This document shows positions 3,842 through 64,000 of a stretch of DNA of 64,000 nt, piece by piece (the stretch's first letter is position 1; every line of letters begins with the position of its first letter). The stretch covers positions 1,803 through 65,802 of the forward strand of contig CAVAGB010000009.1 in NCBI GenBank assembly GCA_963588055.1, given 5' to 3'. A model generated the notes under the pieces. The model ran no database searches and was not told the DNA's origin. It worked only from the letters and a program-made list of their open reading frames with translations. This DNA is from Erysipelotrichaceae bacterium (GTDB lineage: Bacteria; Bacillota_I; Bacilli_A; RFN20; CAG-826). The translations under genes were made by a program, and so were the position numbers.

Positions 3842-4863
3842 GCATGGGTCTATTTTCGTTTTTGAAGAACAAATTCACCAAGAAGGACGAAGGGAGCAAA
3901 TCCGAGAAAGCCAAGCAGGAAGAGAAGTCCTTGGACTCCTATTCCAAAGGCATGGAGAAAAGCCGCAAGAACTTCGCTTCGCGCCTTGATGAGCTTTCTA
4001 AGCGCTATGCGAAGGTCAATGAGGAATATTTCGAAGAACTTGAGCAAATCCTCATCGAAAGCGATGTGGGCGTTGAGCTTTCTTTGCGTCTCATCGAAGA
4101 GCTTCTAAGCGAAACCGCCAAATCCAAGATCAGCGAGCCCAAAGAGATCAACGAGCTCCTGGCCGACAAGATGTTCGTCGGCTATGCGACGAGTGGGGAA
4201 TCCATCCAAAACGAGCTGCATTTCCAAAAGGAAGGCGCGACCGTTTTGCTTGTCTGCGGCGTGAATGGCGTAGGCAAAACCACGACGATCGCCAAGCTCG
4301 CCTACCGTTACATCCATCAAGGGAAGAAAGTCCTTTTGGTGGCGGGCGATACTTTTAGGGCAGGAGCGGTGGAACAACTAAAAACCTGGGCCAGCCGCCT
4401 TGACTGCCCCATCATCACAGGCAAACCGGACAGCGATCCTGCCTCGGTGGCGTATGAAGGCGCGGTGTACGCCAAAAACAACGGAACCGACCTCATGATC
4501 GTCGATACGGCAGGGCGCCAGCAAACCAAAACCAACCTCATGCAGGAGCTTTCTAAGATCTCCCGCGTCCTTTCCAAAGAGATTCCGGGAGCCCCGCACG
4601 AGGCTTTCTTGATCCTCGATGCGACGACTGGGCAAAACGGAGTTCTGCAGGCTGCCTCCTTCAAAGACGCCTGCCCCCTCAGCGGCATCGTCGTCACCAA
4701 GATGGATGGCACCTCGAAGGGAGGCATCATCCTCTCGATCCGCGACACCTTTGGACTCCCCGTGCGTTTCATCGGCTTGGGCGAGAAGATGGAGGACCTT
4801 CAGGAGTTCGACCTCGATAAGTATCTCTATGGGTTGCTTTTAGGAGAGAAAGCAGATGAATGA
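3838..4863 (+). CDS. ftsY: Signal recognition particle receptor FtsY
   Basis: SRP GTPase motifs GVNGVGKTTT, DTAGRQQ and TKMDGTSKGG. The start overlaps the rnc stop. Confidence 0.9.
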   Translation: MSMGLFSFLKNKFTKKDEGSKSEKAKQEEKSLDSYSKGMEKSRKNFASRLDELSKRYAKVNEEYFEELEQILIESDVGVELSLRLIEELLSETAKSKISEPKEINELLADKMFVGYATSGESIQNELHFQKEGATVLLVCGVNGVGKTTTIAKLAYRYIHQGKKVLLVAGDTFRAGAVEQLKTWASRLDCPIITGKPDSDPASVAYEGAVYAKNNGTDLMIVDTAGRQQTKTNLMQELSKISRVLSKEIPGAPHEAFLILDATTGQNGVLQAASFKDACPLSGIVVTKMDGTSKGGIILSIRDTFGLPVRFIGLGEKMEDLQEFDLDKYLYGLLLGEKADE

Positions 4864-18464: not shown

Positions 18465-19386
18465 GCCCGAAAAAGAGTTTCTCGACCATCTCCGCTATCA
18501 AAGAAACTACACTGACCGCACCTTGGACAGCTATCAAAGGGACATCGACAAATTCCAAAGTTTTTTGGACCGGGAGATGATTCTATTCGATCAGGTGAGT
18601 GAGAAAGACATCGACAACTTCCTTTACGATGAGATTTATCACCAAGGCATCTCGCATCGTTCCTGCAAAAGGAGGATGTCGTGCTTAAGGGGATATTACA
18701 CATTCTTAAAAAAGCACGGATACGTCGACAAAAACCCATTTCTTGGCGCCACTTCTCCAAAAGCGGAGATCAAGTACCCAGAGACGCTGTATCTAGAGCA
18801 AGTGAACGCCCTTTTCGCGGCCAACGCCAAACGGAATGATGAATTAAGCAGCCGTGACCAAGCGATCCTCGAATTGCTTTATTCTTCCGGAATGCGCGCC
18901 TCTGAGTTAGTAGGCCTTACCTACCGCCAGATCGATTTCCGCGTTCGCTCAATTAGGGTCAAGGGCAAAGGCAACAAGACCCGCATCGTCCCCTTCTCCA
19001 AATCCGCAGAAGCCGCGATGAAAAAGTACCATGAGACTTTACGGCCCGCTTTGCTTGCGAAAGCAAAGGGAGAAATCAAAAGCGATAAGTTTTTTCTCAA
19101 CAACCAAGGCAAAGGATTGACGGTTCGCGGACTGGAGTACATCCTCCGCGCCGTCGAGGAGAAAACAGGCATCTATTTGGGTCTTCATCCCCACGAACTG
19201 AGGCATACCTTCGCGACCCATTTGCTGGAAAACGGGGCGGATTTGCGGCTTATTCAAGAACTATTGGGTCATGAGACCATAGACACCACCCAGGTCTACA
19301 CCCATGTCAGCAAAGAGAAAATGAAGGAGCAATACGATCAATACTTCCCTCAAAGGGATGGCAAACTTCCAGGCCAAGGCAAGTAG
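18457..19386 (+). CDS. xerC: Tyrosine recombinase XerC/CodV type
   Basis: Catalytic blocks HELRHTFATHLL and LLGHETIDTTQVYTHV. Confidence 0.85.
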   Translation: MNKPEKEFLDHLRYQRNYTDRTLDSYQRDIDKFQSFLDREMILFDQVSEKDIDNFLYDEIYHQGISHRSCKRRMSCLRGYYTFLKKHGYVDKNPFLGATSPKAEIKYPETLYLEQVNALFAANAKRNDELSSRDQAILELLYSSGMRASELVGLTYRQIDFRVRSIRVKGKGNKTRIVPFSKSAEAAMKKYHETLRPALLAKAKGEIKSDKFFLNNQGKGLTVRGLEYILRAVEEKTGIYLGLHPHELRHTFATHLLENGADLRLIQELLGHETIDTTQVYTHVSKEKMKEQYDQYFPQRDGKLPGQGK

Positions 19387-60835: not shown

Positions 60836-62025
60836 GGAAAGCATTGATTGGCTCATCGGTCTTCCTTTTGGCCTTCACCGTCTTCGCCTGCATGGTGCTC
60901 AACACCCCTTCCAGCGTCCTTTATCTGCTCAACTGGGGCGAATACATCGATTCCTCTTTGGTGAAGGGGTTCGAGAAGAAGTTCAATTGCCAGGTGATTG
61001 AGGAGACGGTCACTTCCAGCGAGACCATGTATCAGAAGATCGCTAGCGGCACGACAAGTTATGACGTCGCTATCCCCGGTGACTACGCGGTTACTAGGCT
61101 CTACCAGGAAGGGCTGCTTTTGGAACTCGACGTGAATAACGCCTCCTACCCTAACCTCGCCTCTTATCGCACCGCCTTTCACCCCGCGCTGAAGGCGTTG
61201 ATGGACCAGTATATGGTGGATGAGAAAACCAACGAGTCCTTCGCCTCCTATTTCATGCCTTACTTCTGGGGCACTTACTCTTTGATCTATTCCACCCAAA
61301 CTCCAGGCGTAGAAGAGTCGGTCTTAAGCAATGGCTTTGCTTCTCTTTATGACAATTCGCTCACCCCCGAGGGAACGAAGAAGGGGATGTACGATACGGC
61401 GAGATGGATCGTCGCGAGTTACCTTCTCTCCCAGGGCAAGGACCCCAACATCGTCGACGAGTCCGGATCGAAGGATGGCGACATCTCCGAATCCCTGCAG
61501 AAAGAGATCATCCAAGCGGTGAAAGAGGCGGGTTTTGCGGAGTTAGGCAACGATTCGTTGAAAAGGAACGTCGCCAATGGGAAGCTCGACATGTGCTTCA
61601 CTCAGCTGGGCGATTATTTCGACGGGCTTTATCTTCTCTACGAAAGTGGTGGAAGCGCAGACGGCTACAAAGTCTCCGTCCCGAAGGTGACCGCGGCCTT
61701 CTTCGATTCGATGGTCATCCCCTCGACGAGCCAGAACATTACCCTCGCCAACGCCTTCGTGGATTACATGCTCGACCCTGAGGTTGCTTATCAGAACGCG
61801 AAGTCGATCGGCTATAGCCCGACCCTTCAAAAGGTAGACGCCTTATTCGAGGAGAGGGCGGACCAAGAGGAGTTCTATCCCTCCCTGTCCCAAAGGGATT
61901 TCTTGAACTCCTATCCTAACTTCCTCAACCCCCTTTACGGCGTCAGCAAATCCTATCTGCTCGAAGCCAAATCCAACGAGTACCTGACCACCTGCGAGAC
62001 GATCCTCAACAACCTTTCCTTATAA
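60832..62025 (+). CDS. potD: Spermidine/putrescine-binding protein PotD (membrane-anchored, possibly a lipoprotein)
   Basis: The ATG at 60832 overlaps the potC stop. N-terminal signal LLAFTVFAC and block YLLNWGEYID. Confidence 0.85.
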   Translation: MRKALIGSSVFLLAFTVFACMVLNTPSSVLYLLNWGEYIDSSLVKGFEKKFNCQVIEETVTSSETMYQKIASGTTSYDVAIPGDYAVTRLYQEGLLLELDVNNASYPNLASYRTAFHPALKALMDQYMVDEKTNESFASYFMPYFWGTYSLIYSTQTPGVEESVLSNGFASLYDNSLTPEGTKKGMYDTARWIVASYLLSQGKDPNIVDESGSKDGDISESLQKEIIQAVKEAGFAELGNDSLKRNVANGKLDMCFTQLGDYFDGLYLLYESGGSADGYKVSVPKVTAAFFDSMVIPSTSQNITLANAFVDYMLDPEVAYQNAKSIGYSPTLQKVDALFEERADQEEFYPSLSQRDFLNSYPNFLNPLYGVSKSYLLEAKSNEYLTTCETILNNLSL

Positions 62026-62136
62026 TGGCCAAAAAAGAAGTGGGCAAGGAGGACTTTCGGAGTAGAATAAGCGAGCCTTCCGAAAGGAAAGCGCTTGGCT
62101 TGAAACCCGGTGTCCGGGGTCAAGGCCAATCCACAG

Positions 62137-62213
62137 GCGGGCATGGCGTAATGGTAGCCGCGATAGACTTAGGAAATAAAGTTTTAGCGGAATTCGGGTC
62201 CCGAAAATGCTAG
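62137..62213 (+). pseudogene. tRNA-Leu-like relic (canonical 5' half, decayed 3' half)
   Basis: GCGGGCA-TG-GCG-TAATGGTAGC-CGC-G-ATAGA-CTTAGGA aligns with the 5' half of the intact tRNA-Leu, including a 16-nt identity CGCGATAGACTTAGGA (62159-62174 versus 62474-62489). The anticodon 3' stem and acceptor 3' strand are missing. A T-arm-like remnant GCGGAATTCGGGTCCCG remains. Confidence 0.35.
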
Positions 62214-62238
62214 ATGGCATCGAAGGAATTCGGAAATG

Positions 62239-62438
62239 TGCGGACGAAAGTACGTGCGGACAAACCCCAAAAACGCGAAAAAAGCCCCGAAATCCGTCCG
62301 CATGGGGTGAAAACGGTGCGGACGAAGCCCTGTAATTTGTCCCGTTTCAGTGGGAAAATACCAGGGCGAAGCAAGCTGTCGGCGAATGCGGACGAACGCG
62401 CGGACAGCATTATCCCCAAACTCTTCTATCCGTCCGCA
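62239..62438. repeat. Array of seven TGCGGAC heptamers (five direct, two inverted)
   Basis: Direct copies lie at 62239, 62255, 62317, 62387 and 62399 (the last reads CGCGGAC). Inverted copies GTCCGCA lie at 62296 and 62432. Three direct copies share TGCGGACGAA, and both inverted copies share ATCCGTCCGCA. Confidence 0.7.
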
Positions 62439-62450
62439 AACCCTACATAA

Positions 62451-62535
62451 GCACTAGTGGCGAAACTGGTATACGCGATAGACTTAGGATCTATTGGGAC
62501 ACCCCGTGCAGGTTCAAGTCCTGTCTAGTGCACCA
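62451..62535 (+). tRNA. tRNA-Leu (anticodon TAG), class II with a long variable arm
   Basis: Acceptor GCACTAG/CTAGTGC, anticodon arm ATAGA-CTTAGGA-TCTAT, variable arm TGGGACACCCCGT, T arm GCAGG-TTCAAGT-CCTGT, encoded CCA. Confidence 0.85.
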
Positions 62536-62548
62536 TCGAAAAGATAGT

Positions 62549-62583
62549 CTCCAAGTCCCTGAAAAGACGCTTGGAGGCTTTTT
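62549..62583 (+). terminator. Rho-independent terminator after tRNA-Leu
   Basis: Stem CTCCAAG / CTTGGAG followed by GCTTTTT. Confidence 0.55.
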
Positions 62584-62658
62584 ATACCTGCGTAATTTTA
62601 AGGATACGGCGCGGATTCCGACGATGTTAAACGGAATAGTTCTAATGCCGAACCGAAC

Positions 62659-62691
62659 TTGACTCTCTCTCTCTCTCTCTCTCTCTACAAT
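62659..62691 (+). promoter_or_regulatory. Candidate promoter of the LRR lipoprotein gene, with a dinucleotide-repeat spacer
   Basis: TTGACT (62659-62664) and TACAAT (62686-62691) are separated by a 21-nt spacer made entirely of CT repeats. Confidence 0.55.
62663..62686. repeat. (CT)12 perfect dinucleotide microsatellite
   Basis: Counted directly: 24 nt of uninterrupted CT. Confidence 0.95.
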
Positions 62692-62716
62692 AAAAGAAAT
62701 TTTGGAGGCAGGGAGA

Positions 62717-64000
62717 ATGAAGAAATATATTTCCATAGCTTTATGCGCCTTTTCACTAACTTTGGCGGGGTGCGCGTCGGCCCCGAATAGCCCAACCGAA
62801 GGTGGCTCCTCGTCTGAGGGCACCGGAAGTTCAATCCCATCTCATGAGCATACCTATAGCGACTCATGGAGCAATGACGATACCTACCATTGGCATTCGG
62901 CGACGTGCGAACACAAGGATTTGGTGAAAGACAAGACGACACATACCTTTGGCAGCTGGACGATTGATAAGCAAGCCACCGAATACGAGACCGGATCACG
63001 CCACAGGATTTGCACGGTTTGCGAGTATCGCGTCGACGACACAATCGCCAAATTGGATCACACCCACAAAGCAGGCGATCCCGTGAAGGAGAATGAAGTG
63101 GCCCCGACTTGCGAGGGATACGGCTCCTACGACACGGTCGTCTATTGCACCGAATGCAACGCGGAGATCTCCCGCGTAAACGAGACGATTTCGCCTCTCG
63201 GGCATGATTATGGGGAATGGGCGGTGAAGACGCCGGCCAAATGCCAGGAGGATGGGACGGAAGAAAGAGTGTGTTCTAGGGACCCATCCCATAAAGAGAC
63301 CCGCAAGATCGAGGCTATTGGGCATAAGTGGGGCGAAGTAACCTACGAATGGAGCGATGATTATTCGAATTGCACGGCCAAGCGCGTGTGCGAGAACGAT
63401 CCTTCCCACATCGACTCGGAGAAGGTGGCCTCGACTTCAGCCGTGACAAAACAGCCTACTTATTCGGAAGAAGGGCTCATAAAATACTCCGCCGTCTTCA
63501 AAAATGAGGCTTTTGCCAAGCAGGAATATAATCTCGTCACTGAAAAGAGGAGCATGCTTTCCTATAAGCTCAGCACCGATGGGACTTATTACACCGTCAA
63601 GATGGATTCTTCCTCGATATTCGGGGACATCGTCGTCCCTTCGACCTACAACAACCTTCCGGTCAAGGAAGTCGATTACCTCGGCTTCTACGGCTGCACA
63701 AAGATAACCTCAGTCGCCTTGCCTTCCAGCATTGTCAAGATTGGCTACTCGGCTTTCGAGACCTGCTCTTCCTTGACGAGCGTAACCTTGAACGAGGGTC
63801 TCACTGAAATAGGGTACGAGGCCTTCATGTCGTGTGACAAACTCGAGGCAATTGAAATCCCTTCGACTGTCGCTAAGATCGGGTATAACGCCTTCTATCG
63901 CTGCACCGGACTCAAGGAAGCCACCCTGAAAGATGGCTTGGTTGAAATCGGGAGCTGCGCTTTCTACAACTGTTCATCTCTGGCTTCCATTCACATCCCG
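62717..64000 (+). CDS. Surface lipoprotein with Cys/His-rich repeat modules and BspA-type leucine-rich repeats (3' end outside the window)
   Basis: The frame is open from the ATG at 62717 to the window end (428 codons), so it is absent from the ORF track. SD GGAGG lies 8 nt upstream. Lipobox LTLAGC. Repeated modules of the form GH..GEW..K.PA.C...G.E.RVC are followed by LRR units such as VALPSSIVKIGYSAFETCSSLTSVTL. Confidence 0.75.
   Translation, partial: MKKYISIALCAFSLTLAGCASAPNSPTEGGSSSEGTGSSIPSHEHTYSDSWSNDDTYHWHSATCEHKDLVKDKTTHTFGSWTIDKQATEYETGSRHRICTVCEYRVDDTIAKLDHTHKAGDPVKENEVAPTCEGYGSYDTVVYCTECNAEISRVNETISPLGHDYGEWAVKTPAKCQEDGTEERVCSRDPSHKETRKIEAIGHKWGEVTYEWSDDYSNCTAKRVCENDPSHIDSEKVASTSAVTKQPTYSEEGLIKYSAVFKNEAFAKQEYNLVTEKRSMLSYKLSTDGTYYTVKMDSSSIFGDIVVPSTYNNLPVKEVDYLGFYGCTKITSVALPSSIVKIGYSAFETCSSLTSVTLNEGLTEIGYEAFMSCDKLEAIEIPSTVAKIGYNAFYRCTGLKEATLKDGLVEIGSCAFYNCSSLASIHIP

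Follow-up and report, generated by a model that had tools for sequence, protein, structure and literature searches.

The stretch of DNA analysed here (the window) comprises 64,000 nt of contig CAVAGB010000009.1 from an Erysipelotrichaceae bacterium (assembly GCA_963588055.1). Close to its right-hand end an array of short repeats lies between the 5′ half of a disrupted tRNA-Leu(UAG) gene and a second, complete tRNA-Leu(UAG) gene, an arrangement that probably represents the integrase-binding arm of a mobile element inserted into the first gene. The original prediction, which was made from the sequence alone, had regarded this region as a plain non-coding spacer upstream of tRNA-Leu. Indeed, the tRNA-Leu(tag) is present at 62451-62535, but the region in front of it is a junction of tRNA and element: the split tRNA half at 62137-62174, located just before the start of the segment considered at that time, had been missed. 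The features of the split gene and of the DNA inserted into it are given below; L numbers denote related loci and contigs, P numbers related integrases, and the module was compared in six lineages (that of the window and five others).

62041..62068, plus strand: sigma-70-like promoter TGGGCA-16-TAGAAT of the original host tRNA-Leu, found by a promoter scan in a region conserved in L001-L006
62137..62174, plus strand: orphan 5′ half of the host tRNA-Leu(UAG), GCGGGCATGGCGTAATGGTAGCCGCGATAGACTTAGGA, recognised by comparison with L001
62166..62174, plus strand: common core or crossover region GACTTAGGA (end of the anticodon stem plus loop), which recurs at 62481-62489
62175..62238, plus strand: 64-nt stub, the first element DNA past the crossover, of equal length in all six lineages
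62451..62535, plus strand: complete tRNA-Leu(UAG) with the acceptor stem GCACTAG/CTAGTGC (ARAGORN; Rfam tRNA, 57.7 bits)

The orphan half comprises the acceptor strand GCGGGCA, the D arm, the 5′ strand of the anticodon stem and the loop CTTAGGA, and it stops exactly after the loop. Neither ARAGORN nor Rfam called a tRNA at 62137-62174, and 21 of 23 bases are alike in the corresponding part of the complete tRNA-Leu at 62451-62535. The undisrupted state is seen in a contig of a sister genome (L001; GCA_963620315.1, 5.6 kb), which encodes a PotD protein identical to that of the window. Positions 62026-62174 match L001 with 100% identity; L001 then runs on into an entire tRNA-Leu, the 3′ acceptor strand of which (TGCCCGC) matches, and the window diverges directly after CTTAGGA. 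An intact tRNA-Leu is also present at the same locus in L003-L005 (PotD identity 88-89%). Thus, the insertion in the window begins at 62175, right after the anticodon loop. The orphan 3′ half of the host tRNA (TCTATTGGGTAACTCCGTGCAGGTTCGAGTCCTGTTGCCCGCACCA) was not found in the 64-kb window. Taken as a whole, the locus is almost certainly an element-chromosome junction inside a split tRNA-Leu. Contigs L002 and L006 terminate where the anticodon loop does, to within one base, and contig L001 ends just past the tRNA, as would be expected of assemblies at a variable or repeated junction; the tRNA-Leu(UAG) loci are assembly break points in these metagenome-assembled genomes.

Other origins of the arrangement were considered and rejected. 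There is no 3′ exon matching GCGGGCA, as a group I intron in the tRNA would demand, and the gene of the sister genome is uninterrupted. A simple tandem duplication of the tRNA does not fit copies that differ in acceptor stem, D loop and variable loop, nor a junction that is the att core of an ICE (integrative conjugative element). A chimera-making crossover within the second tRNA was dismissed as well, since the two halves of that tRNA pair perfectly.

The array itself occupies 62239-62438 and consists of seven sites of 9-10 bp with the motif (T)GCGGAC(G/A)(A/G)A, which is unlike the core GACTTAGGA. Positions of sites were counted from the last core base to the G of GCGGAC.

62239..62248, plus strand: Site 1, TGCGGACGAA, at +66; position invariant in six lineages
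62255..62264, plus strand: Site 2, TGCGGACAAA, at +82; position +82/83 invariant in six lineages
62293..62302, minus strand: inverted site TGCGGACGGA at +122; inverted counterpart at +120 in L189/L190, degenerate in L173
62317..62326, plus strand: Site 3, TGCGGACGAA, at +144; aligns with +143 in L173/L176 and +139 in L180
62387..62396, plus strand: Site 4, TGCGGACGAA, at +214; counterparts at +215 (L189) and +208 (L180)
62400..62409, plus strand: Site 5, the near copy CGCGGACAGC, at +226; position +226/227 invariant in six lineages
62429..62438, minus strand: inverted site TGCGGACGGA at +258, 12 nt 5′ of the element tRNA; L002 has this site too, before a tRNA of the same type

The seven sites span 66-258 nt from the core end, with start-to-start spacings of 16, 41, 21, 70, 13 and 32 nt and mixed orientation. 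Seven TGCGGAC heptamers had been announced for this segment, a count that applies to the hexamer GCGGAC and not to the exact heptamer. Six copies are exact (direct at 62239, 62255, 62317 and 62387, inverted at 62296 and 62432); the seventh, at 62400-62406, reads CGCGGAC and thereby keeps the full hexamer and six of seven heptamer bases. The extended matches noted for three direct and both inverted copies were recovered as TGCGGACGAA at 62239, 62317 and 62387 and as ATCCGTCCGCA at 62292-62302 and 62428-62438. Also the statement that such a cluster exceeds chance proved correct. The hexamer GCGGAC/GTCCGC occurs 34 times in the whole window and 7 of these 34 copies lie inside the array; at the expected density of ~0.085 per 200 nt our own arithmetic gives a Poisson probability of at least seven copies of ~6e-12 per 200-nt stretch. 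A general oligomer bias, which the original prediction had named as a possible trivial cause, does not account for the array because just five other TGCGGAC copies exist in the remaining ~63.8 kb; the window-wide count of the heptamer is within shuffle expectation. The two open reading frames named for the segment (62214..62450 plus, 62210..62419 minus) exist.

To find related loci, a metagenome scan with a degenerate pattern of anticodon loop plus 3′ half was productive and yielded seven loci. No match was obtained in the metagenome scan with the exact tRNA 5′ half, nor in scans of viral contigs with the tRNA plus upstream motif, with the tRNA 5′ half, or with the anticodon loop plus 3′ half. 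In viral contigs, 120 matches were obtained with the loose pattern TGCGGACGAA-N-TGCGGAC, all of them within unrelated tandem or coding repeats, and blastn of 62175-62720 against phage and plasmid collections matched the tRNA part only. The order host 5′ half, core, 64-nt stub, array and complete tRNA-Leu also occurs in L173, L169, L174, L176-178, L180, L181 and L189-191. The architecture is thus present in five other metagenome lineages, four of which link it to xis-int and conjugation genes, and no functional tRNA exists at the junction in these five lineages either. In L169, L173 and L174 a 5′ half (or another arm) ending in ACTTAGGA is followed by the stub of ~64 nt, then by TGCGGAC in five direct copies, by a complete tRNA-Leu and by a terminator hairpin.

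The host tRNAs differ, and the junctions nevertheless lie directly after ACTTAGGA in L173, L169, L174, L176, L180, L181, L189 and L190. The same ICE is present in L189 and L190, inserted into a different host tRNA-Leu gene in each and with the same junction after GACTTAGGA; therefore integration is site-specific. An element-borne tRNA equivalent to that of the window is found at the same place in L173, L176, L180, L181 and L189. The acceptor stems of these tRNAs vary (GCACTAG, GCGGACA, GTCCTGG, GCGGGCG, GCCGGGT) and the array motif is constant.

Comparison of the lineages revealed a fixed geometry of the sites; the positions from the core end are given below, with (-) marking inverted copies.

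Window: +66, +82, (-)+122, +144, +214, +226, (-)+258
L173/L176: +66, +83, +143, +198, +226/227
L180: +66, +83, +139, +173, +208, +227
L181: +66, +83, +194, +226; a one-mismatch copy near +143 is the counterpart of Site 3
L189/L190: +66, +82, (-)+120, (-)+133, +198, +215, +227; a one-mismatch copy near +143 is the counterpart of Site 3

Positions +66, +82/83, ~+143 and +226/227 are common to the six lineages. The tRNA start, in contrast, is found at +276/277 in some lineages and at +313-316 in others. Because the sites are fixed relative to the core while the tRNA start moves from ~+276 to +316, the array is anchored to the crossover and not to the tRNA. In alignments the heptamer blocks stand out as invariant islands amid diverged sequence, and in a scan of all 8-mers of the window module every position-conserved word (at least three of four other lineages) overlapped a TGCGGAC site.

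A smaller repeat was observed as well. The word GGAATTCGG occurs at 62189-62197 and 62224-62232 within the stub and as an inverted copy at 62286-62296 within the array, and AAAGTCGGGAAT-like words stand in the arms of related ICEs just past the core and again ahead of their tRNA. Repeats of the GGAATTCGG type may be sites for a second protein (excisionase or host factor).

The genes beyond the module point to the nature of the carrier. In L173 a gene for a 443-residue tyrosine integrase (PF00589) lies beyond the tRNA beside an HTH_17 excisionase-like gene, and an integrase with an adjacent HTH_17 gene is located 2-4 kb past the tRNA in L173, L176, L180, L181 and L189. A search for homologues defined an integrase family of ~445 residues with 55-98% identity; the integrases of module-bearing ICEs are 62-98% identical to one another. 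On the contigs of integrases P0122, P0128, P0134 and P0131 conjugation genes are followed by xis, int and 2-4 kb of cargo. Past the cargo the opposite strand carries, in this order, a complete tRNA-Leu(tag), the array of TGCGGAC copies, the stub and finally the core, joined to an orphaned 5′ half of the host tRNA. The conjugation genes on ICE contigs encode VirB4-like AAA_10/DUF87, TraG/VirD4, MobL relaxase, ArdC and primase-like proteins. The carriers of the module on these four contigs are thus integrative conjugative elements. A temperate phage as carrier is not supported, as virion families are absent among the Pfam matches listed for the related carriers and the four scans of viral contigs yielded no relative. 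In L183 (P0139) the element is reversed relative to the tRNA, and the motif cluster is still found between int and core. It comprises five copies there, two direct and three inverted, with a distance of 11 bp between two of them. The DNA available around integrases P0143, P0145, P0151 and P0135 did not reach an att site.

The related ICE integrases contain PF00589 and a SAM-like domain. A structural model of the integrase (mean pLDDT 84) predicts an N-terminal three-strand sheet plus helix (residues 2-51, pLDDT ~90), followed by a helical core-binding domain and the catalytic domain. The best Foldseek matches of this model were Tn1549 Int (6emz/6emy) and full-length lambda Int. Arm-type sites are short repeats, different from the core and placed at set distances from it, in lambda, L5, HP1 and Tn916. 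Since the motif of the array differs from the core, keeps fixed distances, lies on the integrase-proximal side and is conserved together with a tyrosine integrase family, we consider it probable that the array represents the arm-type sites of a heterobivalent tyrosine integrase, located in the integrase-proximal arm of an ICE or ICE remnant.

According to this, the element would have recombined with the host tRNA-Leu(UAG) through the ~9-bp common core GACTTAGGA at the anticodon loop. Because of its orientation on entry no tRNA would be rebuilt at the junction, the host 5′ half at 62137-62174 would be left as an orphan, and element DNA would follow next to it. The element's own tRNA-Leu(UAG), ~280 nt inside its end (62451-62535), would then replace the disrupted host gene. 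The N-terminal domain of the integrase would occupy the seven (T)GCGGAC(G/A)(A/G)A sites, its other two domains, core-binding and catalytic, would act at the core in the anticodon loop, and the arm would fold onto the core into a recombination complex for integration or, together with the HTH_17 excisionase, for excision.

Several observations weigh against this interpretation. No integrase gene is present in the window, which stops 1.5 kb past the element tRNA; the element here could therefore be a scar, and its integrase, if retained, would be encoded past 64000. The module and tRNA occur in L169 without an adjacent ICE; a scar, a mini-element or a mis-assembled metagenome contig may underlie that arrangement. 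The N-terminal domain of the integrase has no Pfam match, the model of the isolated domain is of low confidence (pLDDT 56), and its Foldseek matches are meaningless. In elements of the L173 type the motif is identical to the initial seven bases (GCGGACA) of the tRNA that they carry. Sites in the other arm are inconsistent: in a candidate far-end arm of L171 three tandem GTCCGCAATTC (GTCCGCA) copies lie 136-158 bp from a core, and the homologous arm in L174 lacks the 100-nt segment of L171 that bears the copies. Furthermore, the integrase as the binding protein is our inference, and an excisionase or another architectural protein could bind instead.

This last possibility, in which the HTH_17 excisionase or another architectural protein occupies the sites at the same location and with the same role in the recombination complex, is in our view unlikely. 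The HTH_17 gene is found directly upstream of int in every ICE examined, and a fixed distance to the core would fit any component of the recombination complex. Nevertheless, excisionase sites in lambda, L5 and P22 are usually two or three adjacent direct repeats in one arm, and five to seven copies over 190 nt, in both orientations in some lineages, suit arrays of arm-type sites better.

The array might alternatively be a promoter or operator region controlling the downstream element tRNA-Leu, directly upstream of which it lies in every lineage. The tRNA needs a promoter, and a scan found neither a sigma-70-like promoter nor a terminator-like site inside the module. However, the site positions are constant relative to the core and shifted by ~38 nt relative to the tRNA start, and in L183 and L171 the cluster adjoins the core without a tRNA 5′ half or a tRNA start downstream. 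A control region is therefore very unlikely. Within 61900-62800 the site at 62041-62068 is the sole promoter-like element on the plus strand. As neither promoter nor terminator was found inside the module, the element tRNA may be transcribed by read-through from this host promoter.

Functionless debris, i.e. decayed tRNA 5′ ends or att remnants left by repeated integration, is a highly improbable source of the array. It would agree with the identity of the motif and the 5′ end of GCGGACA-type tRNA-Leu, with degenerate core-like pieces in the stub and with the behaviour of the locus as a variable hot spot in relatives. Debris would hardly, however, keep identical sequence and positions where the intervening DNA, the acceptor stems and the integrases (62-70% identity) have diverged.

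The original prediction had offered, as one of two options, a structured non-coding RNA or tRNA leader in which the heptamers form alternative helices. The complementary segments it listed were both found (62386-62394 with 62295-62303; GCCCTG at 62327-62332 with CAGGGC at 62361-62366), the segment of the window folds better than shuffled sequences (z = -2.7), and it is probably transcribed within the tRNA precursor, with no terminator between the host promoter and the tRNA. This z-score, however, follows trivially from direct and inverted copies of one motif, and across the lineages the folding z-scores range from -0.3 to -2.7. Inverted copies are absent in three of the five other lineages; because only direct copies exist in L173/L176, L180 and L181, the proposed helices cannot form there. 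Conservation resides in the heptamers themselves and not in pairing partners. The Rfam scan that had been suggested matched only tRNAs, both for the whole window at the gathering threshold and for 61900-62750 at E≤10. The RNA interpretation is hence abandoned as extremely improbable. Its companion, an iteron-like array of protein-binding sites, was right in kind as to a protein-binding array, which is locked to the tRNA crossover, and wrong as to iterons.

Iterons of a replication origin, or partition sites, of the excised circle can practically be dismissed: numerous short repeats within the non-coding part of a mobile element would suit them and some ICEs replicate after excision, but these repeats measure 9-10 bp and not 17-22 bp, are irregularly spaced and of mixed orientation, lack an adjacent rep or par gene and an AT-rich unwinding region, and are anchored to the att core, with the primase-like genes of related ICEs many kb away.

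The two cores of the window, at 62166-62174 and 62481-62489, are identical direct repeats bracketing a segment of ~315 bp (62175-62489). In L175 the host 5′ half is joined to the 3′ half of the element tRNA, forming a chimeric tRNA, and the module is gone. L175 and L002 look like products of recombination or deletion between the two cores, and L175 and L169 look like products of recombination between alternative cores. It is conceivable, although we regard it as rather doubtful, that the ICE family makes its host dependent by destroying the sole tRNA-Leu(UAG) gene and supplying the replacement, a stabilising "addiction", that its integrase can excise the 315-bp segment, and that elements thereby leave or swap tRNA alleles. 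Such an excisable segment and swapped alleles would explain L175, L169 and L002. In that case conjugative elements would drive the turnover of an essential tRNA gene in gut Bacilli with small genomes.

Several related loci show variants of the tRNA and its surroundings. In L002 (5240-5351), from a related species (PotD identity 90%), a GCACTAG-type tRNA-Leu, the type borne by the element of the window, occupies the native locus, and of the module only the final ~60 nt stand in front of it (GGTGGACGG ... CCGTCCGCAAAC), which suggests that the element-derived tRNA replaced the host gene. The ICE tRNA-Leu of L189/L190 (11185-11269) has the altered anticodon loop CTTAGAA and the stem CGGTG/CGCCG and is devoid of the GACTTAGGA core. 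This loss would protect the tRNA from the integrase of its own element; the element tRNA of the window, unlike that of L189/L190, retains the core. L169 (reverse-complemented, ~4080-4640) contains the module, an element-type tRNA and a terminator, followed by nrdD/nrdG-like anaerobic ribonucleotide reductase genes. The motif TGCGGACA equals the preceding base plus the first seven bases of the GCGGACA-type tRNA-Leu in L173, L176, L169 and L174. Its complement closes the 3′ end of this tRNA type, and other lineages keep the motif with other acceptor stems.

In L004 (5396-8720) an intact tRNA-Leu is followed by an island of ~3.2 kb without integrase (AAA ATPase, small open reading frames) and by a decayed tRNA-Leu 3′ fragment that starts in the anticodon loop. 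Copies of GTCCGCA/CGCGGAC precede the fragment by 90-180 nt, and a separate run of four TTCAAAAYRCCGAAT-like repeats is located just downstream of the intact tRNA.

The DNA downstream of the element tRNA contains the following features.

62546..62587, plus strand: terminator-like hairpin with T-run, AGTCTCCAAG...CTTGGAGGCTTTTT, found by a pair search; the terminator scan listed none there
62717..64000, plus strand: 5′ part of a gene for a BspA-type leucine-rich-repeat (LRR) lipoprotein with PF13306/PF13855 relatives

The hairpin resembles the one after the tRNA in L173. In a blastn comparison 62458-62582 is 80% identical to L004, in which a homologous hairpin follows an element-supplied tRNA 3′ half. 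The best relatives of the LRR lipoprotein are 44-50% identical over part of the query, and its gene may be cargo of the element or belong to the host flank. At 62663-62686, ~30 nt 5′ of the lipoprotein ATG (62717), there is a perfect (CT)12 run, so placed that slipped-strand mispairing could bring about phase variation of a surface protein. Elsewhere in the window a tyrosine recombinase gene at 18467-19305, unlinked to the array, encodes a protein with ~26% identity to the ICE integrase over the catalytic domain; it is probably a Xer-type chromosomal recombinase.

Two observations concern related loci only. Beside a related ICE integrase in L188 (5447-12478) genes for a DNA methylase, an MZB-domain protein, a large helicase and a NERD/UvrD-like protein form a cargo that looks like an anti-phage defence island. 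The locus of a distant relative, L032 (12449-12855), contains five tandem tRNA-Gly(acc) genes; two tRNA-Gly(acc) genes are present in L039 and one at the edge of the L036 locus.

The combination of array, orphan tRNA half and second tRNA is a landmark for the terminus of conjugative elements of a family not described before, the hosts of which are uncultured gut Bacilli related to Candidatus Enteromonas and Enterosoma. The duplicated tRNA pieces can mislead annotation. If the host truly depends on the element copy, this would stabilise the mobile DNA and provide a route for horizontal replacement of a tRNA gene. Furthermore, the fixed geometry of +66, +83, +143 and +226 offers a compact test system for the assembly of a recombination complex.

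Among known systems, the attP arms of lambda (P1, P2, P′1-3) and L5 (P1-P7) come close to the array: five to seven repeats of ~10 bp, different from the core, lie ~60-260 bp from the crossover, with either orientation represented and some of the repeats closely paired (+66/+82 and +214/+226 in the array). As predicted for the ICE family, these phages have a tyrosine integrase with an extra N-terminal domain plus an excisionase. Unlike lambda and L5, the carrier is conjugative, all clearly conserved sites are found on one arm, and a complete tRNA gene is embedded in this arm. Plasmid and phage iterons share with the array the multiple short copies of a motif in non-coding mobile DNA and differ from it in length, spacing, mixed orientation and neighbourhood. 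The cis-mobilizable and accretion systems of the streptococcal ICESt3 type resemble 62175-62489 as a segment bracketed by copies of the same core. Unlike there, the anticodon loop of the element tRNA forms the right-hand core, in place of a second att site left by another element, and mobility of the segment is conjecture.

With the Tn916/Tn1549 family the ICEs share xis-int at the element end, and the catalytic and core-binding domains of the modelled integrase match Tn1549 Int best. Tn916 is known to have arm repeats near its ends. Both Tn916 and Tn1549 insert with low specificity into AT-rich sites, whereas the ICE family described here is specific for the anticodon loop of tRNA-Leu. ICEBs1 of Bacillus subtilis, which has a tyrosine integrase plus excisionase, also targets a tRNA-Leu gene (trnS-leu2); it uses the 3′ end, so that the tRNA stays functional. 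The element of the window, unlike ICEBs1, uses the anticodon loop, splits the host gene and brings a replacement.

A similar strategy has been described as tRNA-dependent lysogeny in actinobacteriophages (Guerrero-Bustamante and Hatfull 2024; PMC10865867): a short core of ~10 bp inside a tRNA gene is used, the tRNA is not rebuilt and the phage carries an isotype-matched tRNA; paired putative arm-type sites stand on either side of the core, and a lambda-like integrase is encoded. Like these phages, the element of the window has a short core in a tRNA, of which none is rebuilt, and supplies its own tRNA-Leu(tag). Unlike them, it belongs to the ICEs of uncultured gut Bacilli, targets tRNA-Leu(UAG) instead of tRNA-Lys and carries the replacement, on which the host may depend, at no more than 280-320 nt from the junction. 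In a limited literature search, no title or abstract among the 15 best-ranked of 23 papers with the term tRNA-dependent lysogeny dealt with a conjugative element, and the word "conjugative" is absent from PMC10865867. The phage strategy of tRNA-dependent lysogeny would be extended to conjugative elements by this system. The biology is familiar and the arrangement is unusual: a conjugative element that combines disruptive integration with a built-in replacement tRNA.

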